Shown: positions 2,917 to 61,897 of the stretch, piece after piece
Layout: each line of letters opens with the position of its first letter
How positions within the stretch are numbered: the first letter of the stretch is position 1
NCBI GenBank assembly: GCA_964402695.1
Contig: CAYODK010000001.1
Span: 12,702 to 76,701, forward strand
Direction of reading: 5' to 3'
Source: an uncultured Verrucomicrobiota bacterium
Lineage (GTDB): Bacteria > Verrucomicrobiota > Kiritimatiellia > PWTM01
DNA: 64,000 nt
The notes under the pieces: model-generated
Database searches by the model: none
Told to the model about the DNA's origin: nothing
The model's input: only the letters and a program-made list of their open reading frames with translations
Position numbers and translations under genes: made by a program

Positions 2917-3981
2917 ATGGCACTGGCTCTCTACCTGATCGGAACGCCGCGATGCGGCAAGACGGCGGTCTTTGACGCGCTGACGAACACGCCGGCCGGC
3001 CCGAACTTCATGACCAAGGGCGGGCACCGCTACGGGACCGTCAAGGTCCCCGACACCCGGCTCGAGGCTCTCCGCGACCTCTTCAAGCCGAAGAAGTTCA
3101 CCCCGGCGGAGGTCACCTTCACCGACGTCGCCCCTCCGGGCGGCGAGGCGATCCACTTCGGCGACATGACCCCCGTGCTCGGCAATGCCGACGCGTTCGT
3201 CCTCGTCGTCCAGGCCTTTGGCGAGTTCGACTACGAGGGCAAGCCCCTCGACCCCGTCGCCCAGATGGAGTCGGTCATCCTCGAGATCACGGTGTCCGAC
3301 TTCGAACGCATCGAGAAGCGCATCGAGAAGGCCGTCACGGACAAGAAGCACGGCGGCAAGATGTCCGAACAGGAGATGAAGCTTCTCGAACGCTGCCGCG
3401 ACCATCTCGCGGCGGACAAGCCTCTCCGGACGATGGAGATGCGCGATGACGAGGAGAAGATCCTCCGCACCTACCAGTTCCTGTCGCAGAAGCCGCTGCT
3501 GGTCGTAGCGAACATCTCCGAGGACCGCATCCGCACCGGTGGCCTCGAGGCCCTCGACGCGGCGGCGAAGGAGCGCGGACTTGAGGTCCTGCAGTTCTGC
3601 GCGACGCTGGAGGCCGAGATCGCGACGCTCGATCCCGCCGCCCAGGTCGAGTTCCTCAAGGACTATGGCCTCGCCGAGCCCGCGCGCATCCGGCTCCTGC
3701 ACGCCGCCTACAAGGCCCTCCGGCTGATCAGCTTCTTCACCGTCGGCGAGGACGAGGTCCGGGCGTGGACGATCCACGAGGGCACCCACGCCCAGGCCGC
3801 CGCCGGCAAGATCCACACCGACATCGAGCGCGGCTTCATCCGCGCCGAGACCGTTCCCTCCGACGAACTGCTCCGCCAGGGCACCCTTGCGAAGTGCCGC
3901 GAACACGGCACGCTCCGCCTCGAGGGCAAGGAGTACATCGTCCGCGACGGCGAGGTCCTCCACTTCCGCTTCAGCGTGTGA
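2917..3981 (+). CDS. ychF: divergent YchF/Obg-like ATPase
   Basis: Track ORF 2878..3981; internal start MALALYLIGTPRCGKTAVFDALT (P-loop GxxxxGKT) and the C-terminal YchF/TGS signature GKIHTDIERGFIRAETV. The canonical NVGKST is replaced by RCGKTA. Confidence 0.7.
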   Translation: MALALYLIGTPRCGKTAVFDALTNTPAGPNFMTKGGHRYGTVKVPDTRLEALRDLFKPKKFTPAEVTFTDVAPPGGEAIHFGDMTPVLGNADAFVLVVQAFGEFDYEGKPLDPVAQMESVILEITVSDFERIEKRIEKAVTDKKHGGKMSEQEMKLLERCRDHLAADKPLRTMEMRDDEEKILRTYQFLSQKPLLVVANISEDRIRTGGLEALDAAAKERGLEVLQFCATLEAEIATLDPAAQVEFLKDYGLAEPARIRLLHAAYKALRLISFFTVGEDEVRAWTIHEGTHAQAAAGKIHTDIERGFIRAETVPSDELLRQGTLAKCREHGTLRLEGKEYIVRDGEVLHFRFSV

Positions 3982-4183: not shown

Positions 4184-6100
4184 TCATCCCCGGGGAGGGG
4201 TCGCACGGGTGGACTGCCACATCTCCTGCGTTGCCGCCGCGAAGGCGGAGGGGTCGGCGTTGGGGAGGAGCATCGAGTCGATGTAGGCGGACTCGAACTC
4301 CGGGCGGAGGTTGAGTTCGACCGGTTCGGCGGCGCGGATAATGCGCTCGAACTCCGCGGCGGCGCCGGGGCCGCCGAGCGCGAGGACCGCGCCGGCGAGC
4401 GAGCCGTTGCCGATCACCTCGATCTTCCCGGCGGGCAGGTCGGGCAGCAGCCCCATCCACGCGGCGTGGCGCAGGTGAATGTAGCGTGCGAAGCCTCCGG
4501 CGAGGATCAGCGTGTCGAGATCCGCGACGGTGCGCCCGGCGGCGGCGAGCAGGGTCACGATGCCCGCGTGGATCGCGGCCTTGGCCTTCAGGATTTCGGC
4601 GACGTCCGCCTCGGAGACCGTCAGCGGGTGCCCGGCGGCGGTCGCCTCGGCGGGCACGACGCGGCAGGCGTGGATGTGCCGGCCTCGGTGGTCGACCCGC
4701 GCGTCGAGGCCGGCGGCGCGGAGCCGGTCCATGTCGAAGCGGCCGAGCGCGTCGAGGAGGCCGGACCGGAACGACTGGGCGACGAAGTCGACGATCGCCG
4801 ACCCGCAGAATCCGGCCGCCGGAGCGCCGCCGATCGTCGTCCATTCGGCCTCCGGCCCGTCCGTCCAGCGCACGTGGTCCACCGCGCCGTCGGCCGCGCG
4901 CATGCCGTGGCGCAGCCCCGCGCCCTCGAATGCCGGTCCCGCCGCAGTCGCCGCGCACAGGAGCCGGGCGCCGTCCCAGAGCAGGATTTCGCCGTTGGTG
5001 CCGATGTCGACCAGGGCCACGAGACCCTTGCGGTCGAGAAGCCGCGCCGCGCAGGCGTCCGCGACCAGGTCCCCGCCGACGTGCCCCGTCATCGAGGGCA
5101 GCACGTCGACGATCGCGTTCGGGTTCGCCGCGAGGCCCAGGTCGCGCGCGCGGCACTCCGGGTGGCGGCGGCGCACCGGCTGGAACGGCATCGCGCCGAT
5201 ACCCGCCGGGGTGAGCCCGAGAAACAGGTGCGCCATCACCGTGTTTCCGGCGGCGGTCACGCGAACGATCGCCTCCGGCGCGCAGCCGGCCTTCTCGCAC
5301 AGTTCGGCGGCCAGCCGGTTGATCGTGTCGCGCACGACGAGCGACTGCAGCTGGGCCAGCCCCCCGGGCGCCATGGAGACCGTGATCCGGGCGGCCACGT
5401 CGTCGCCCTTCCGCATCTGCGCGTTGTAGGCGGACGCGCGGCCGATCGCGGCGCCGGTGTCGAGATCGGCCAGCAGCGCGACGACGGTTGTGGTTCCGAT
5501 GTCGACGGCGAGCCCCAGGTGGCGGGTTGTCCCGGCCGGCGCGACCGCCGTAACGTCCACGCCCCCCCGGAACGGCCCCCATGAAACGTCCAGGCGGGGG
5601 GCTGCGGCCAGATGTCCCGGGAGTTCCCGCGCAACGTGGAGATCCGGAACCGCCCCCTCGGGACCCCCGGCCCCGGTGAGCGCGAGCGCGAGTCGTTCCA
5701 CGTCGGAGGAGGCGGTCTCCCAGGTGCCGCCGGAGACGGCGACCGTCGCGCGCCGCTGCACCGGTGTCCAGGCGAAGGCCGGAATCACGAAGTCGTCGGC
5801 GATGCTGGCCCGCTGCTCGACCAGCGACCGGTCCGGGATCTCCACCACGGCATCCGCGGAAGCGGGCCGCGTGCCGCAGGCCTGCGCCCGGCGCGGCGCG
5901 CCCGGCTCCACGCGCACCTCGGAGCCGCGGATGACAAACGCGCCCTCGTGGAGGATGACGGCGCAGCGGCCGCAGGCGCCGCGCGCGCCGCAGGCCGTGT
6001 TGAGCGGGATGCCGGCGGCGAACGCGAGATCCGCCAGCGTGGAACCGGGGGGGCCGTCCTGGATCCGGGTCTCGCCGCGGATCCGGAAGCGCACGCTCAT
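4184..6100 (-). CDS. corrinoid reductive activase (RACo-type: 2Fe-2S ferredoxin plus ASKHA ATPase domain)
   Basis: The N-terminus LNTACGARGACGRCAV is a plant-type ferredoxin Cys cluster. It is followed by a long ASKHA/DUF4445-like region (DIGTTTVV...VDIGTNGEI). It lies 22 nt downstream of a B12-binding protein gene on the same strand. Confidence 0.75.
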   Translation of the reverse strand: MSVRFRIRGETRIQDGPPGSTLADLAFAAGIPLNTACGARGACGRCAVILHEGAFVIRGSEVRVEPGAPRRAQACGTRPASADAVVEIPDRSLVEQRASIADDFVIPAFAWTPVQRRATVAVSGGTWETASSDVERLALALTGAGGPEGAVPDLHVARELPGHLAAAPRLDVSWGPFRGGVDVTAVAPAGTTRHLGLAVDIGTTTVVALLADLDTGAAIGRASAYNAQMRKGDDVAARITVSMAPGGLAQLQSLVVRDTINRLAAELCEKAGCAPEAIVRVTAAGNTVMAHLFLGLTPAGIGAMPFQPVRRRHPECRARDLGLAANPNAIVDVLPSMTGHVGGDLVADACAARLLDRKGLVALVDIGTNGEILLWDGARLLCAATAAGPAFEGAGLRHGMRAADGAVDHVRWTDGPEAEWTTIGGAPAAGFCGSAIVDFVAQSFRSGLLDALGRFDMDRLRAAGLDARVDHRGRHIHACRVVPAEATAAGHPLTVSEADVAEILKAKAAIHAGIVTLLAAAGRTVADLDTLILAGGFARYIHLRHAAWMGLLPDLPAGKIEVIGNGSLAGAVLALGGPGAAAEFERIIRAAEPVELNLRPEFESAYIDSMLLPNADPSAFAAATQEMWQSTRATPPRG

Positions 6101-30300: not shown

Positions 30301-31958
30301 AGCACCCGGACTTCCTCAAGACGGGTCTCGAGAACGGCGTGAAGCTGCCGCTTCCGGCGAACATCCATCCGAACAAGGTTCGCGCGAACATGTGGCGCAT
30401 CGTCGACTACGACGGCGACGGCGCGCAGGACCTCGTTGTCGGCGTCGGCGACTGGACCGACTACGGCTGGGACAACGCGTACACGGCGGACGGGACGTGG
30501 ACGAACGGTCCGCTGCGCGGCTTCGTTTACGTTGCGCGAAACAAGGGCACGACGGCGAAGCCGGACTACGAGGCGCCCGTGAAGGTGGAGGCTGCGGGCA
30601 AGGCCGTCGAGGTGTTCGGCTGGCCCTCGCCGAACTTCGCGGATTGGGACGGCGACGGCGATCTCGACCTTCTCTGCGGCGAGTTCCTCGACGGGTTCAC
30701 CTACTTCGAGAACCAGGGGACGCGCAAGGCCCCGGCGTACGCCGCCGGCCGGCGAGTACGGACGCCGGATGGGAAGCCGCTGGCAATGGACCTGCAGATG
30801 ATCACGCCGACGGCGATCGACTGGGACGGGGACGGCGACCAGGACCTGATCGTCGGCGACGAGGACGGCCGCGTGGCGTTCGTCGAGAACGTGAGCGACG
30901 TGGGGCAGACACTCCTGTCTGCCCCAAACCGGACCCCTTCCGTGGCGCAGGACGGGGCAGACAAGAGTGTCTGCCCCACGACGCCGGGTTTCCTCCCCCC
31001 CCGCTACTTCCGGCAGGAGGCGGAGAGCGTGAAGTTCGGCGCGCTCGCGACGCCGTGCGGGTTCGACTGGGACGGCGACGGCGACACCGACATCGTCAGC
31101 GGCAACACGGCCGGCTACATCGCGTTCATCGAAAACCTGAGCGGCCCGAAGGTGGCGACGCCGAAATGGGCGGAGCCGGAGTATCTCGAGGCCGATGGCA
31201 GGATCCTCCGCATCATGGCCGGCCCCAACGGCAGCATCCAGGGGCCGTGCGAGGCAAAGTGGGGCTACACGACGCAGACAGTCGCGGATTGGGACGGCGA
31301 CGGCCTGCCGGACATTGTCGCCAACTCGATCCTCGGCAAGGTGCACTGGTATCGCAACACCGGCACGCGGACGTCGCCGAAGCTCGCGGCGGCGCAGCCG
31401 GTCGAGGTCGAGTGGAACGGTCCGCAGCCCGCGCTGGCCTACGGCTGGCTGCGCCCTCAGGGCAAGGCGCTGCTGACGCAGTGGCGCACGACGCCGGTCG
31501 CGGTGGACTGGAACCGCGACGGCCTGACCGACCTTGTGATGCTCGACCAGGAGGGCTACCTCGCCTTCTTCCAGCGCGCGCGGCGCGACGGCCGGCTGGT
31601 GCTGCTGCATCCGCGGCGCGCGTTCTGCGACGACACCGGCGCGGCGCTGCGGATGAACGCGGGGATCGCGGGGCGGAGCGGGCGGCGGAAGCTGTGCGTC
31701 GTCGACTGGGACGGCGACGGGAAGCTCGACATCCTCGCCAACGCCGCCAACGCGCGGTTTCACCGGCAGGTCGGAGAGAAGGACGGCACGTGGCTTTTCA
31801 AGGACATGGGCCTGCTCGTCGAGCACAACATCGAGGGCCACGACGTGAGCCCGACGGTCGTCGATTTCGACGGCAACGGCATCCCCGACTTCCTCGGCGG
31901 CGCCGAAGACGGCCACTTCTACTTCCTCCCCAATCCCCGCGCCCACCTGATGCGCTGA
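27348..31958 (+). CDS. giant exo-alpha-sialidase (GH33) plus second BNR/sialidase-like domain plus beta-sandwich plus FG-GAP/VCBS repeat domain
   Basis: ATG 27348 (ATGA overlap) gives MKRIILGAGLAAMAWAGGAGA signal. YRIPSI (RIP motif) and five Asp-boxes (STDGGATWS, SKDDGRTWD, SNDGGATWW, SDDWGATWG, SRDGGRTWP). A second BNR set follows (STDGARTWS, SADGGATWA, ADLGKTWG, SSDGATWK). Then nine DxDGDGxxD FG-GAP/VCBS repeats. This is the in-frame part of track ORF 25491..31958. Confidence 0.7.
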   Translation: MKRIILGAGLAAMAWAGGAGAADNGCRRTTVFESGRDGYNTYRIPSIVATAKGTLLAFCEGRRHGSGDAGDIDLLLKRSTDGGATWSAAQVVWDDGANTCGNPCAVVDGASGTVRLLLTWNRGDDRESQIIDGTSKDTRRVFVTSSKDDGRTWDKPREITADVKKTNWTWYATGPGAGIQMEQGPHKGRLVIPCDHIKAGTKAYDSHVLLSNDGGATWWLGGSTVHGKVNECEVAELPGGRLMLNMRNYDRAQKVRRVAFSDDWGATWGKVGADEALIEPVCQASLRRIAWGADGKEGLLAFSNPASTSGRVNMAVRLSRDGGRTWPALRTLHAGPAAYSCLVALPGGDIGCLYEAGARSPYESIVFARFTPAWVDEGRMDVIRRQPGYVSSEFIYESAPFPSCHASTVIETGDGALAAAWFGGTAEKNPDVCIYVARREAGRWTAPVEVANGVQADGTRHPCWNPVLFQPRGGPLMLFYKVGPDPRTWWGMLRTSTDGARTWSDARRLPDGILGPIKNKPVQLASGDILAPTSSEHDGWRVHFERSADGGATWAATPAINDGREIGAIQPSILFPGGDRLLAVGRTRQAKVFRIESADLGKTWGTMTLTDLPNPNSGTDAVTLKDGRHLLVYNHTAKGRSPLNVAVSSDGATWKHALTLEDEPRAEFSYPAVIQARDGLVHITYTWKRQKVRHVVVDPAKLQLTDIPGPPNLAVKGRGWTFAKLANGEKAFSNRPYVWDGVPAAFRDWRITQIAGGEPYETRVTARNATRIHAAMVSSKSATAFSGWTMEDGVEFRYTDGGKTRMQVWSRELKADEEVALPKGGWAGTLLMVPPDAKVTVTEAPLPSAQTLTRLPYNNPGLVVDLGVGLWAWPLPVDYDGDGDLDLVVNCPDKPYNGLYFSPKPGGGQVRSSAGRAPNDLGQTGVSAPRGGVGQALLPARSQPQIEGSAPLPVFKPGRRVSKGMQNVQISTVDGRPRVLSPGTEHPDFLKTGLENGVKLPLPANIHPNKVRANMWRIVDYDGDGAQDLVVGVGDWTDYGWDNAYTADGTWTNGPLRGFVYVARNKGTTAKPDYEAPVKVEAAGKAVEVFGWPSPNFADWDGDGDLDLLCGEFLDGFTYFENQGTRKAPAYAAGRRVRTPDGKPLAMDLQMITPTAIDWDGDGDQDLIVGDEDGRVAFVENVSDVGQTLLSAPNRTPSVAQDGADKSVCPTTPGFLPPRYFRQEAESVKFGALATPCGFDWDGDGDTDIVSGNTAGYIAFIENLSGPKVATPKWAEPEYLEADGRILRIMAGPNGSIQGPCEAKWGYTTQTVADWDGDGLPDIVANSILGKVHWYRNTGTRTSPKLAAAQPVEVEWNGPQPALAYGWLRPQGKALLTQWRTTPVAVDWNRDGLTDLVMLDQEGYLAFFQRARRDGRLVLLHPRRAFCDDTGAALRMNAGIAGRSGRRKLCVVDWDGDGKLDILANAANARFHRQVGEKDGTWLFKDMGLLVEHNIEGHDVSPTVVDFDGNGIPDFLGGAEDGHFYFLPNPRAHLMR
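30062..30071. repeat. homopolymeric G10 tract inside the coding sequence
   Basis: ccggggggggggcagg; a second G9 tract lies at ~30136-30144 and a C8 tract at ~30995-31002. Confidence 0.8.
30110..30168. repeat. pair of 24-nt palindromic hairpins GGGGCAGACA-N4-TGTCTGCCCC and GGGGCAGGCA-N4-TGCCTGCCC inside the sialidase gene
   Basis: ggggcagacaggagtgtctgcccc (30110-30133) and ggggcaggcactcctgcctgccc (30146-30168), both translated in-frame (GQT...SAP). Confidence 0.8.
30902..30977. repeat. second pair of the same palindromic hairpins, 0.8 kb downstream in the same gene
   Basis: ggggcagacactcctgtctgcccc (30902-30925) and ggggcagacaagagtgtctgcccc (30954-30977). Confidence 0.8.
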
Positions 31959-31970
31959 TAAGAAGAGGAC

Positions 31971-32922
31971 GACAACCGAATGGGGACAACCGAATGATGA
32001 GGGAAGTAGGACAAGGTTGGTAGCGCTGGAAAGAGGCTGTTGACGATGTCGATTCAGTGTTCCATTCCGGTGCGAGACTTGAGCAAGGGCGAGTTCGACG
32101 AACGCGACGCCGTCGTGATGCGCTGCGCCTATGCATCCCAGAACTGCCTGGGAAGGCTCTGCGACGAGCAGGTCTATGAGAATGATCTGGCATTGCGCCT
32201 GAAAGCCGAGGGATTCTGCGAGATTCACACGCAGGTGCCGGTTGTCGTCACTCATGAGGGGTTTGAGAAGACCTATCGATTGGACCTCCTGGCCGACGAT
32301 GCGCTGTACGAGTTGAAGACGGTTGCGGCGCTGACCGCCGAGCATGACGCCCAATCGTTGCACTACGCCATGCTGCTGGGAGTCCGGCATTCGAAACTGC
32401 TGAACTTCAGGACGCCAAGGGTGCAGGGGCGGTTGAGATTCAACGCGATCGATCCAAGCCAAAGGATGAGGGTTACGTGGAGTACTTCGAAGTGGTGTCC
32501 GCTGTCCGATTCATGCGTTCACCTTAAAGAGTGGATTCAGGCCATGGTCTCCGACTGGGGCGCCTTTCTGGACTCCCACCTGTACGAAGAGGCGTTGATC
32601 CACTTCTGCGGCGGCGAGTTGAACTGCGTTCGCCGCGTGCCGGTGCTCCGAGAAGGTCGGCAACTGGGCACGCAGAGGGTCCAATGTCATGACGATGGCC
32701 TCTGCTTCCTCGTGACCGCCATGACGGCCGATGTTGAGCGATTTGCGGGGCATCTCCAACGCCTGCTTGCATTGACCCGGCAGCGCGGAATGCAATGGAT
32801 GAATCTCGATCGCGAACGTGTCCATCTGAACACCATTCGTCCCGAGGAAGTACATAGGACTTCATCATGAACAGGCATCATCCCTCCCTTCGGCACTATT
32901 CGGTTGTCCCCATTCGGTTGTC
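31971..32922. mobile_element. ~0.95-kb low-GC cassette with perfect 25-bp terminal inverted repeats carrying one PD-(D/E)XK-family gene
   Basis: Left TIR gacaaccgaatggggacaaccgaat at 31971-31995. Right TIR attcggttgtccccattcggttgtc at ~32898-32922 is its exact reverse complement. The interior is visibly AT-richer than its flanks. Confidence 0.7.
32040..32870 (+). CDS. GxxExxY / PDDEXK_3 (PD-(D/E)XK nuclease-like) family protein with extra C-terminal domain
   Basis: EQVYENDLALRLKAEGF...VPVVVTHEGFEKTYRLDLLADDALYELKTVAALTAEHDAQSLHYAMLLGVRHSKLLNF matches the GxxExxY family pattern; TTG start per the track, first ATG at 32046. Confidence 0.65.
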   Translation: MTMSIQCSIPVRDLSKGEFDERDAVVMRCAYASQNCLGRLCDEQVYENDLALRLKAEGFCEIHTQVPVVVTHEGFEKTYRLDLLADDALYELKTVAALTAEHDAQSLHYAMLLGVRHSKLLNFRTPRVQGRLRFNAIDPSQRMRVTWSTSKWCPLSDSCVHLKEWIQAMVSDWGAFLDSHLYEEALIHFCGGELNCVRRVPVLREGRQLGTQRVQCHDDGLCFLVTAMTADVERFAGHLQRLLALTRQRGMQWMNLDRERVHLNTIRPEEVHRTSS

Positions 32923-34120
32923 ATTCCGTTCGGCTGCCGCCGCTCTTTTCGCGGTGGCGTCTTCATCGGTCGCGGCGGAGGCTCCCCGGGCATCCGGGAC
33001 GAACATCACCAACCACGCCGAGTGGAGGAACGGGCGGCCGGTCGGTCTGCCGGGGGCGGTGACGGCGAGGGTCGAGACAGCCTTCGTCTACCGGCCCGAC
33101 GCCGACTCCGCGTGGGCCTACTCGCATCACCAGAGCCTCGCATGGTTCACGGGCCGCTGGTTCGCGATCTGGTCCAACGGCCGCGTGAACGAGGACGACC
33201 GCGGGCAGCGCGTGCTGCTCTCGACCTCGAAGGACTTCCTGACCTGGTCCGAGCCCCGCCCGCTCGCCGTGCCCGACCGCGACGGCTCCGGCGGGGAGCG
33301 CGTGCTGACCGCGGCCGGCTTCCACGAGCACGACGGCACGCTCGTCGCCTATTTCGGCAACTACGGCTTCCGCAAGGAGACCACGCACCTGCAGGCCGTG
33401 ACGACGACGGACGGCGACCGCTGGAGCGAGCCGCTCGAGATCGGCGTCCCCGTGAACCCGAACCACGGGCCGCAGCGGACCGCGTCCGGCCGGCTCATCA
33501 TCAGCGGCAACATCTCGTTCCCATGGACCGACGACCCCGCCGGCCTCACCGGCTGGCGCATGACCGGGATCCATCCCGCGAGCCTCAACTTCACCATCAA
33601 GGACGATCCATCCTCCTTCCACGACCTCGCGACGATGCAGGGCTGGCCGGCCGGGCTGTGCGAGGGCTCGTTCTACCAGACCGACGACCGCGTCCTCCAC
33701 ATGCTCCTGCGCAGCACCGGCCGCCCGCACGACGGCCGCCTGTGGATCAGCGAGAGCCGCGACGACGGCGCGACGTGGTCCGCGCCCGTCCCGACCGCGT
33801 TCAGCGACACCAATGCCAAGTTCCACTTCGGCCGCCTGCCCGACGGCCGCTTCTTCTACGTCGGCAACCCGGTCGGCGGCGGCCGGATCCCGCTTGTTCT
33901 GTCGCTCTCGCGCGACGGCGCATCGTTCGACCGGCACTTCATCCTCGGCGCGACGCCGTACGAGAAGCGGAAGGCCGGAACGCACAAGGGCGGCCACTAC
34001 GGCTACCCGCACACGCTGGTCCGCGACGGCTTCCTCCACGTGATCGTCTCGCGCCAGAAGGAGGCGGTCGAGGTGCTGCGCGTGGCGCTGTCGGAACTGA
34101 ACGAAGAGAGGGCGCGATGA
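32867..34120 (+). CDS. BNR-repeat sialidase-like glycoside hydrolase
   Basis: Asp-box-like STSKDFLTWS, TTDGDRWS, SRDDGATWS, SRDGASFD. The first 18 codons are encoded by the right TIR of the upstream cassette; an in-frame TTG at ~32918 gives a cleaner signal peptide (LSFRSAAAALFAVASSSVAA). Confidence 0.65.
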   Translation: MNRHHPSLRHYSVVPIRLSFRSAAAALFAVASSSVAAEAPRASGTNITNHAEWRNGRPVGLPGAVTARVETAFVYRPDADSAWAYSHHQSLAWFTGRWFAIWSNGRVNEDDRGQRVLLSTSKDFLTWSEPRPLAVPDRDGSGGERVLTAAGFHEHDGTLVAYFGNYGFRKETTHLQAVTTTDGDRWSEPLEIGVPVNPNHGPQRTASGRLIISGNISFPWTDDPAGLTGWRMTGIHPASLNFTIKDDPSSFHDLATMQGWPAGLCEGSFYQTDDRVLHMLLRSTGRPHDGRLWISESRDDGATWSAPVPTAFSDTNAKFHFGRLPDGRFFYVGNPVGGGRIPLVLSLSRDGASFDRHFILGATPYEKRKAGTHKGGHYGYPHTLVRDGFLHVIVSRQKEAVEVLRVALSELNEERAR

Positions 34121-35663: not shown

Positions 35664-35750
35664 GCGCATGAGGACGGCGGCCCCCCCTATCCCATACGAT
35701 CCGGTTCGGACCCGGGATGGGACGGGGTGTGAATGCGAGTCGTCCAGCAT

Positions 35751-35940
35751 GGAAGTGAGAAACTCCAAACTCCAAGGAAGTGGGAAGTGCAACGAAGGAG
35801 AAGGAGGGAAGTCCGGACGAGTCGCAGGTGGGGAACCGGTTCGTCGGAGTCCGGTGCTTTTCGAAACGGCCTTGGATTTCCACCCGGGGGCTCTCCGACT
35901 TCCCTTCTTCTTCCTTGGAGTTTGGAGTTTCCCTACTTCC
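35751..35940. repeat. second full MITE-like element (inverted arms GGAAGTGAGAAACTCCAAACTCCAAGGAAG)
   Basis: Left arm at 35751-35812; right arm gacttcccttcttcttccttggagtttggagtttccctacttcc at 35897-35940 is its reverse complement. Confidence 0.7.
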
Positions 35941-36013
35941 GGCTCGACGTCGACGGGTTCCCGTGAGAGACGATCAACCGCATTGCTCCGGCCCCGCTTC
36001 ACGAGGCGGGGTG

Positions 36014-61622: not shown

Positions 61623-61897
61623 TCAAAGCCTCTCGTCCTAAATCACTAGCACGTCCATGGAGATACTACTCTATCACGCCGCGCCCGCTTGTCAAATCGG
61701 GCCAAGGCCGGCTCGGGGAATGGCGACCGAATGGCGACAAGCGAATGGGAAGAGGGGCGAGGGTCGAGGGGCGGGGAAGAGCGGCCGGGGGCGCGTGTCG
61801 TGTCGGATCGGATGCTGCCCGCCGTTCGGCGTTCGTGTTCCGCTGGTGGACGCCATGCGGGTTCGGGTGCATGCTTTGCGGAATGGGCGGGGACGAC

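Follow-up and report, generated by a model that had tools for sequence, protein, structure and literature searches.

A single gene encoding a PD-(D/E)XK nuclease-like protein of the GxxExxY family lies between the arms of a perfect 25-nt inverted repeat in a 64-kb stretch of an uncultured Verrucomicrobiota genome (contig CAYODK010000001.1, positions 12,702–76,701; hereafter the window), and each arm of this repeat is itself a tandem doublet of a 12-nt unit. On balance, and with modest confidence, this repeat-gene-repeat cassette is interpreted here as the resident 'master' locus for a system of repeats and enzyme that resembles the one formed by repetitive extragenic palindromic (REP) doublets forming hairpins (REPINs) and REP-associated tyrosine transposases (RAYTs), but is built on a PD-(D/E)XK nuclease. 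The analysis shows a real and evolutionarily coherent cassette, with its anatomy, its family-wide tie to the repeat, the co-variation of the two, the protein fold, the synteny and the dimorphism; nuclease activity, doublet recognition and a role in moving the repeats are inferred. According to the mechanism proposed, the gene product would be a monomeric endonuclease whose two PD-(D/E)XK domains form a pseudo-dimer, the N-terminal one being active and the C-terminal one degenerate, and its cognate DNA site would be a tandem doublet of the 12-nt unit G-R-C-A-R-N-N-G-A-A-T-G. Inverted doublets bracket the gene, and the same doublets found elsewhere as short gene-less intergenic hairpins or arrays would be non-autonomous partners of the cassette; the nuclease may bind and cut at these doublets, which could cause the gene-less elements to be copied, excised or gene-converted and so promote their spread or turnover. 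The gene itself keeps one chromosomal position over the long term and evolves faster than its neighbours, and in the lineage of the window the whole repeat-bounded block appears to have been swapped for a distant allele. A wider proposal, put forward only tentatively, is that long GxxExxY proteins constitute a second class of enzymes associated with repeats, unrelated in mechanism to the first: PD-(D/E)XK nucleases that would recognise 12-nt doublet units and both generate and maintain whole hairpin populations in Planctomycetota, Verrucomicrobiota and Lentisphaerota, their master cassette being exchangeable between genomes.

The cassette and its nuclease-like protein

The left arm, GACAACCGAATGGGGACAACCGAAT at 31971–31995, is matched by its exact reverse complement at 32898–32922, and the match amounts to 25 of 26 positions once the next base is counted (31971–31996 on the forward strand and 32897–32922 on the reverse strand). 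By chance, about 6e-8 perfect 25-nt inverted pairs no more than 1 kb apart would be expected in 64 kb (64000 x 1000 / 4^25). Each arm is made of two GACAACCGAATG units with GG between them, giving a period of 14 nt, and a weaker inverted repeat (78%) reaches out to 31962–32010 and 32883–32931. The guanine-cytosine (GC) content is 0.57–0.61 over 31750–32950, compared with 0.68–0.73 on both sides. An earlier note on this DNA had described the perfect terminal repeats, the tandem duplication within each arm and the AT-rich interior, and all three descriptions hold. No direct repeat that could represent a target-site duplication is found in the outer flanks of the arms at the window locus (...AGAGGAC and ATTCCGT...), and no second copy of the nuclease gene is present in the 64-kb window. 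Rfam gave no match to the cassette at E ≤ 1, and nine repeat-bearing loci returned only unrelated tRNA, cobalamin and signal recognition particle entries, so that no known RNA family accounts for the repeat.

The sole long open reading frame (ORF) between the arms (32046–32870, forward strand) matches both PF13366, PDDEXK_3 (E 4e-16, 59.8 bits with a cut-off of 22), and TIGR04256, GxxExxY (E 4e-15, 56.1 bits with a cut-off of 35), in each case over residues 25–127, confirming the N-terminal domain that the earlier note had recognised; a Pfam scan of the protein found nothing except PDDEXK_3. The 276 residues given there correspond to a start at TTG 32040, but homologues, which begin MPIxCPI, and the NCBI copy of the protein favour 274 residues from ATG 32046. 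The PDDEXK_3/GxxExxY family is listed as being of unknown function (PMC3424549). Residues E43, E47, D82, Y90 and K93 (276-residue numbering) are invariant in 46 sequences, position 91 being E or D. A high-confidence structure model consists of two tandem PD-(D/E)XK folds of the restriction-endonuclease-like type; the N-terminal fold (32046–32459) retains the catalytic residues, and the C-terminal fold (32460–32867) has lost the D...ExK motif. The C-terminal domain is probably a degenerate internal duplicate, and this combination of one fold with catalytic residues and one without makes the protein probably a fused pseudo-dimer with a single active site. With respect to the short GxxExxY proteins (TIGR04256/PF13366, ~120 residues), the N-terminal domain is a clear family member that shares their motif and D...(E/D)xK residues, whereas the cassette sub-family adds the degenerate second PD-(D/E)XK domain to reach ~265–275 residues in total. 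Constant flanking doublets also set the long form apart, this being the only form examined for repeats.

Searches of PADLOC, PHROGs and PDB sequences returned no match to the nuclease protein, and neither the 25-mer nor the gene was found on any viral contig. Membership of a known anti-phage defence system or phage gene family is accordingly not supported.

Flanking doublets across the homologue family

Homologues of the 265–275-residue form are numerous (369 at E ≤ 1e-5 in a clustered database, mostly 50–65% identical; in a set of 1.84 billion representatives clustered at 50% identity, 353 clusters at E ≤ 1e-30), and doublets accompany nearly all of those surveyed. Flanks were surveyed at 77 distinct homologue loci, 64 of which extend for at least 100 nt on both sides of the gene. 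When counted with the pattern CA-NNN-GAAT, 4–7 nt, CA-NNN-GAAT, doublets in the 77 loci reach a density of 7.3/kb within 200 nt of the gene, fall to 0.15/kb farther off, and are absent from the gene itself. Within the 64-locus set they occur upstream in 55 loci, downstream in 60, on both sides in 52 and on neither side in a single case, leaving 63 with at least one doublet within 200 nt. The consensus of the 12-nt unit is G-[G/A]-C-A-[A/G]-[A/G]-[C/G/A]-G-A-A-T-G, with a 2-nt spacer in 167 of 212 doublets, and the nearest arm lies at a median distance of 20 nt ahead of the start codon and 26 nt past the stop codon. The commonest layout places the gene between two complete hairpins (25/64), and the arrangement seen in the window, a + arm, the gene and a - arm, is found at 18 of the 64 loci. 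In the window, as in each of the loci examined, the gene occurs only once.

Could this association be a coincidence, abundant intergenic repeats being apt to flank any gene? Hairpins do appear in several neighbouring intergenic gaps at some loci, as such a view would have it, but doublets beside the gene are 50 times denser than those on the remainder of the same contigs, 63 of 64 loci possess them, and the other 63 kb of the window contain one further, diverged doublet only, so that coincidence can be regarded as exceedingly improbable. Chance flanking as such is excluded by the enrichment next to the gene.

Two of the surveyed loci, L149 and L134, have hairpins in successive intergenic gaps of the genes adjoining the nuclease gene. 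These two and L159 were compared for a hairpin insertion site; their upstream genes are not orthologous, so the comparison yielded no common site.

Protein and repeat vary together. In a neighbour-joining tree of the protein, three clades correspond to flanking units of the types xxG-GAAT, xxA-GAAT and xxC-GAAT. Upstream and downstream units agree at 78% of variable positions when taken from the same locus and at 53% when taken from different loci, a level of agreement attained in none of 2000 permutations, and doublets located at a distance on the same contig share the class of the gene-flanking doublets in 104 of 108 units. Co-evolution of protein and repeat is proposed here as a part of the favoured interpretation, for which the sequences supply the co-variation.

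A lower GC content of the gene relative to its flanks is found in 42 of 42 loci (by a mean of 5.3 points, and by 12.9 points in the window), and gene GC tracks that of the host (r 0.72). Low GC is therefore a trait of the family and not evidence of recent arrival, and it was discarded as a sign of recent transfer.

History of the locus and its neighbouring genes

Four metagenome loci share the genes that flank the cassette in the window, and each of them carries a cassette at this place. Identities to the window are 85–92% for flank proteins and 94% for the cassette protein in L084, which has identical arms; 76–82% and 69%, respectively, in L174, with the repeat GTCAACCGAATGGGGACAACCGAATG; 85–89% and 58% in L098 (also L096 and L099; probably the Lentisphaerae metagenome-assembled genome (MAG) VGWF01, protein MBM4156681.1), with GGCAAACGAATG; and 83–91% and 58% in L175, with GGCAAGCGAATG / GGCAAACGAATG. 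The presence of the cassette at the same position in syntenic relatives indicates that it is old at this site, and the insertion between sialidase genes described in the earlier note is not a fresh one. Nor is 'non-autonomous', as the element was called there, a fitting description, because the cassette itself encodes the likely enzyme. Throughout the family, nine synteny groups were recognised, and 30 of 72 loci are singletons; the groups keep the position of the cassette even at 40–60% protein identity, and where a pair of loci is homologous on both sides, the cassettes are usually less alike than the flanks. A limited search revealed no empty site; in it, homologues of the downstream BNR gene at ~70% identity lay in unrelated and uninformative contexts.

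In the more distant locus L087 (flanks 59% identical), the nuclease gene follows a different BNR_2 gene within an FG-GAP/BNR neighbourhood, and hairpins at 3730–3770 and 4907–4953 separate the FG-GAP, BNR_2 and nuclease genes. The tie to sialidase and FG-GAP genes predates the precise order in which the genes now stand.

Among genomes with flanks about 93% identical, the cassette exists in two forms. When the nucleotides of four syntenic loci are aligned, the flanks are mostly 88–98% identical in the pairings compared, whereas the block 31940–33015 separates into two allele classes, {window, L084} and {L098, L175}, with 32–78% identity between classes and proteins that are 58% identical. Within the first class, sliding identity of the block ranges from 0.77 to 1.00. 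Each class has its own repeat variant, and the two are about as distant from one another as from family members on unrelated contigs. The differing block roughly coincides with the repeat-bounded unit, in keeping with the delimitation of that unit in the earlier note. It seems that a distant allele has taken the place of the block on at least one occasion, unless rates of change were extremely uneven. The left arm is 100% identical between the window and L084 and the adjoining spacers only 73–80%, a difference suggesting that the arms are under selection, which we count in favour of the master-locus interpretation.

Dimorphism of this kind, with alleles as distant as members on unrelated contigs set in near-identical flanks, suggests replacement of the whole unit and could also be explained by an autonomous mobile or homing cassette, which would move or convert alleles as a whole, its PD-(D/E)XK protein acting as transposase or homing nuclease and the gene-less hairpins being internally deleted derivatives similar to miniature inverted-repeat transposable elements (MITEs). 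The perfect terminal inverted repeats and the many genomic contexts across the family, as judged by the number of singletons, would fit such a cassette, and so would the 18 loci with the gene between a + and a - arm, which is the topology of the common + - hairpins with the gene placed in the loop. This strong form of the idea in the earlier note is nevertheless unlikely, since none of the contigs examined has more than one copy of the gene, its position is conserved in all nine synteny groups despite the divergence of the protein, the arms are without a target-site duplication, the limited search revealed no empty site, and the gene most often has full hairpins on both sides and not a single pair of terminal repeats. 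Allele replacement, moreover, could be ordinary homologous recombination via the conserved flanks. The mobile element envisaged in the earlier note thus survives in part: a coherent cassette, a dimorphic block and gene-less repeats speak for it, but second copies of the gene or of the whole element are missing from the window and from every locus, duplication and empty sites were sought and not found, a recent insertion is contradicted, and low GC says nothing about the time of arrival.

The neighbouring genes bear on a different explanation. Upstream, a 1536-residue protein with BNR_3, two BNR_2 and FG-GAP domains ends at 31958, and downstream a BNR_2 (sialidase-like) gene of 417 codons (32867–34120, forward strand), with an identical 417-residue protein in NCBI, begins at an ATG that overlaps the stop codon of the nuclease gene (ATGA). 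Since this ATG lies ~30 nt ahead of the right arm, the arm provides N-terminal codons (~11–19) of the BNR frame and not, as previously stated, its start codon, although its placement within the N-terminus was correct. The frame is open through the right arm in the window (32867–32925), L084, L174 (about 1426–1500) and L098 (about 5480–5560), encoding ..(L)HSxxPIRL.. ahead of a hydrophobic signal-peptide core, and the upstream FG-GAP frame of L098, which lacks the stop codon of the window, reads through the left arm; in some genomes, consequently, parts of both neighbouring genes are encoded by the arms. Because read-through of the right arm is common to relatives, any remodelling of the downstream gene start by the insertion, as the earlier note had surmised, must be old.

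No terminator-like site was found between the nuclease gene and the downstream gene, and because this operon-like string has none, the arms are probably transcribed. REP elements have a known role in mRNA stability, which hairpins between operon genes resemble. An immobile host function may be considered on this basis, with the protein as a sequence-specific DNA- or RNA-binding or processing factor (e.g., in repair, in organising the nucleoid or in processing transcripts) that uses the doublets as operators or processing sites and is autoregulated through the copies beside its own gene. The close spacing of the arms, within ~20–26 nt of start and stop codons, and the long-term vertical retention of the gene would be accommodated as well. 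This explanation is also judged improbable, however. The invariant catalytic residues argue for cleavage over mere binding, a gene that evolves faster than its neighbours and is dimorphic would be unusual for a housekeeping factor, and repeat populations that vary between and within genomes, with tandem expansions of the 14-nt unit (L035), have the look of selfish spread.

Gene-less repeats and comparison with known systems

An exact-match scan of a 596-Gb collection (one genome per species) located the 25-mer at 83 loci, with ~0.001 expected by chance, a point in favour of the earlier note, which had proposed looking for further copies. The hosts are MAGs labelled Planctomycetota/Ca. Kuenenia, Lentisphaerae/Lentisphaerota and Verrucomicrobiota, and the copies are intergenic hairpins or arrays; searches of these 83 loci with tblastn and the family hidden Markov model detected no relative of the nuclease. 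Two forms of the gene-less repeat can be distinguished. MAGs of ~55% GC (Ca. Kuenenia, Planctomycetota and, doubtfully, Chitinophaga) contain dozens of intergenic hairpins in which CATTCGGTTGTCCCCATTCGGTTGTC and GACAACCGAATGGGGACAACCGAATG pair perfectly across a ~20-nt loop, sometimes with three to eight or more 14-nt units in tandem. These hairpins share a conserved core of ~125 nt, according to a rough, ungapped consensus, and tandem expansion of the 14-nt unit is seen, e.g., in L035. MAGs of 65–73% GC (Lentisphaerae and Verrucomicrobiota) contain solo doublets, usually preceded by GGAGGAT-like purines, in composite modules of simple repeats. The diverged doublet of the window, GGCGACCGAATG-GC-GACAAGCGAATG (61722–61747, forward strand), is followed by GGGCGAGGG-type simple repeats and has the same composite layout as Lentisphaerae MAG loci L023, L029 and L066.

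Several further details of these copies were recorded. Hairpins of the ~55% GC MAGs (L007, 102–171; L035, 3497–3600) run in the order reverse arm, loop, forward arm, opposite to that of most gene-adjoining hairpins. Arrays in the Lentisphaerae MAG (L060, 6590–7060; L064, 4870–5360; L053, the whole locus) are composed of tandem ~110-nt units extending over up to ~330–690 nt, each unit comprising a GGAGGAT lead, the doublet, and a GC-rich stem-loop or heptads (CACGGAT, TTTCAGG, CAACAACC and others); orientation is the same throughout, and doublet variants are mixed inside one array. In the window, the doublet and the GGGCGAGGGTCGAGGGGCGGGG and GTGTCGTGTCGGATCGG simple repeats after it take up a non-coding-looking stretch (61722–61810). 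The identical 25-mer is common to MAGs of ~55% and ~70% GC assigned to different phyla. Among the loci L005–L083, on contigs CAZFDW01 and CAZRFL01, MAGs labelled 'uncultured Chitinophaga sp.' (~55% GC) and 'uncultured Bacteroidales' (70% GC) carry the same repeats and flanking consensus as Planctomycetota- and Lentisphaerae-type MAGs, and their taxonomic labels or binning look doubtful. CAZFDW01, like JAYUVA01, is rich in hairpins.

Four points weigh against the cassette being the master locus of such a repeat population. First, in the Lentisphaerae MAG (VGWF01; L096/L098 as compared with L023–L067) the master gene appears to be flanked by GGCAAACGAATG, yet at least 12 exact doublets of GACAACCGAATG, the variant of the window, are present; either the cognate match is loose or these doublets are a relic of a past or replaced allele. 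Second, co-variation of protein and repeat could be due to shared descent alone. Third, the window is sparse in the repeat, with one diverged doublet outside the cassette in 64 kb. Fourth, hairpins occur in both arm orders (+- and -+), along with solo doublets in arrays, which no single simple transposition mechanism would predict.

To our knowledge, REP/REPIN sequences and RAYTs represent the only well-studied case in bacteria where a population of repeats depends on an enzyme gene that is single copy and inherited vertically. Like the repeat family and associated enzyme gene of that system (PMC3116915, PMC3337134), the cassette has a single-copy, largely vertical enzyme gene between inverted copies of a short repeat whose variant is specific to the associated gene and which also appears to be dispersed as hairpin-forming extragenic elements. 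Dispersal within the same genome is seen on contigs of relatives and probably in the Lentisphaerae MAG, and the window itself has only its one diverged doublet. The differences are equally clear. The cassette enzyme is a tandem PD-(D/E)XK nuclease, and RAYTs are HUH/Y1 proteins similar to the TnpA of IS200/IS605; the unit GACAACCGAATG is a non-palindromic 12-mer in a doublet of 14-nt period and lacks a GTAG or CGTC tag, while a REP is an imperfect palindrome of 20–40 nt that bears one (PMC3733652). The system also differs in its occurrence in bacteria of the Planctomycetota-Verrucomicrobiota-Chlamydiota (PVC) group and in the dimorphism of its master cassette among close relatives. It was not filed as a member of the REPIN/RAYT group because two defining features, the HUH/Y1 enzyme and the tagged palindromic REP, are missing.

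MITEs and their autonomous insertion sequences provide a second parallel, in that the same terminal inverted repeats bound both short non-coding elements and a longer one with a protein gene between them. Terminal inverted repeats (25/25) are indeed present in the cassette, but it encodes no recognised transposase family (DDE, HUH, serine or tyrosine), PDDEXK_3 being the only match, it has no target-site duplication, and the gene-bearing unit is single copy and syntenic; multiple whole-element copies were not seen, nor, in the limited search, were empty sites in relatives. The nearer analogue is not an insertion sequence but the enzyme gene of a REP system, lying between copies of its own repeat. 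PD-(D/E)XK enzymes do take part in DNA mobility, among them TnsA of Tn7, free-standing homing endonucleases, and monomeric or nicking type II restriction enzymes. With these the cassette protein has only the fold in common, its profile having matched no PDB sequence, and it differs from them in having no partner transposase, methyltransferase or intron/intein context.

The literature consulted describes neither a link between a PD-(D/E)XK protein and extragenic repeats nor the repeat sequence itself, although coverage was incomplete and an earlier description is possible. If correct, the proposed interpretation would add a convergent system, on another nuclease fold and in other phyla, implying that the repeat-plus-enzyme life-style arose more than once. 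It would also give the first functional lead for the large GxxExxY/PDDEXK_3 family, and would account for one kind of intergenic repeat that is abundant in PVC genomes, where it fragments assemblies and disturbs gene-start annotation. The strict pairing of protein clades with variants of the 12-nt site offers a natural series for studying the evolution of sequence specificity, and the proteins might turn out to be nucleases that nick or can be programmed.

Low GC also marks a second intergenic stretch of the window (35741–35949), which contains a different hairpin-type repeat, with 40-nt arms that are 80% complementary (..GGAAGTGAGAAACTCCAAACTCCAAGGAAG / CTTCCTTGGAGTTTGGAGTTTCCCTACTTCC..), a tandem AAACTCC doublet in the arms and a nested 15-nt inverted repeat, an architecture similar to that of the cassette repeat in another sequence.

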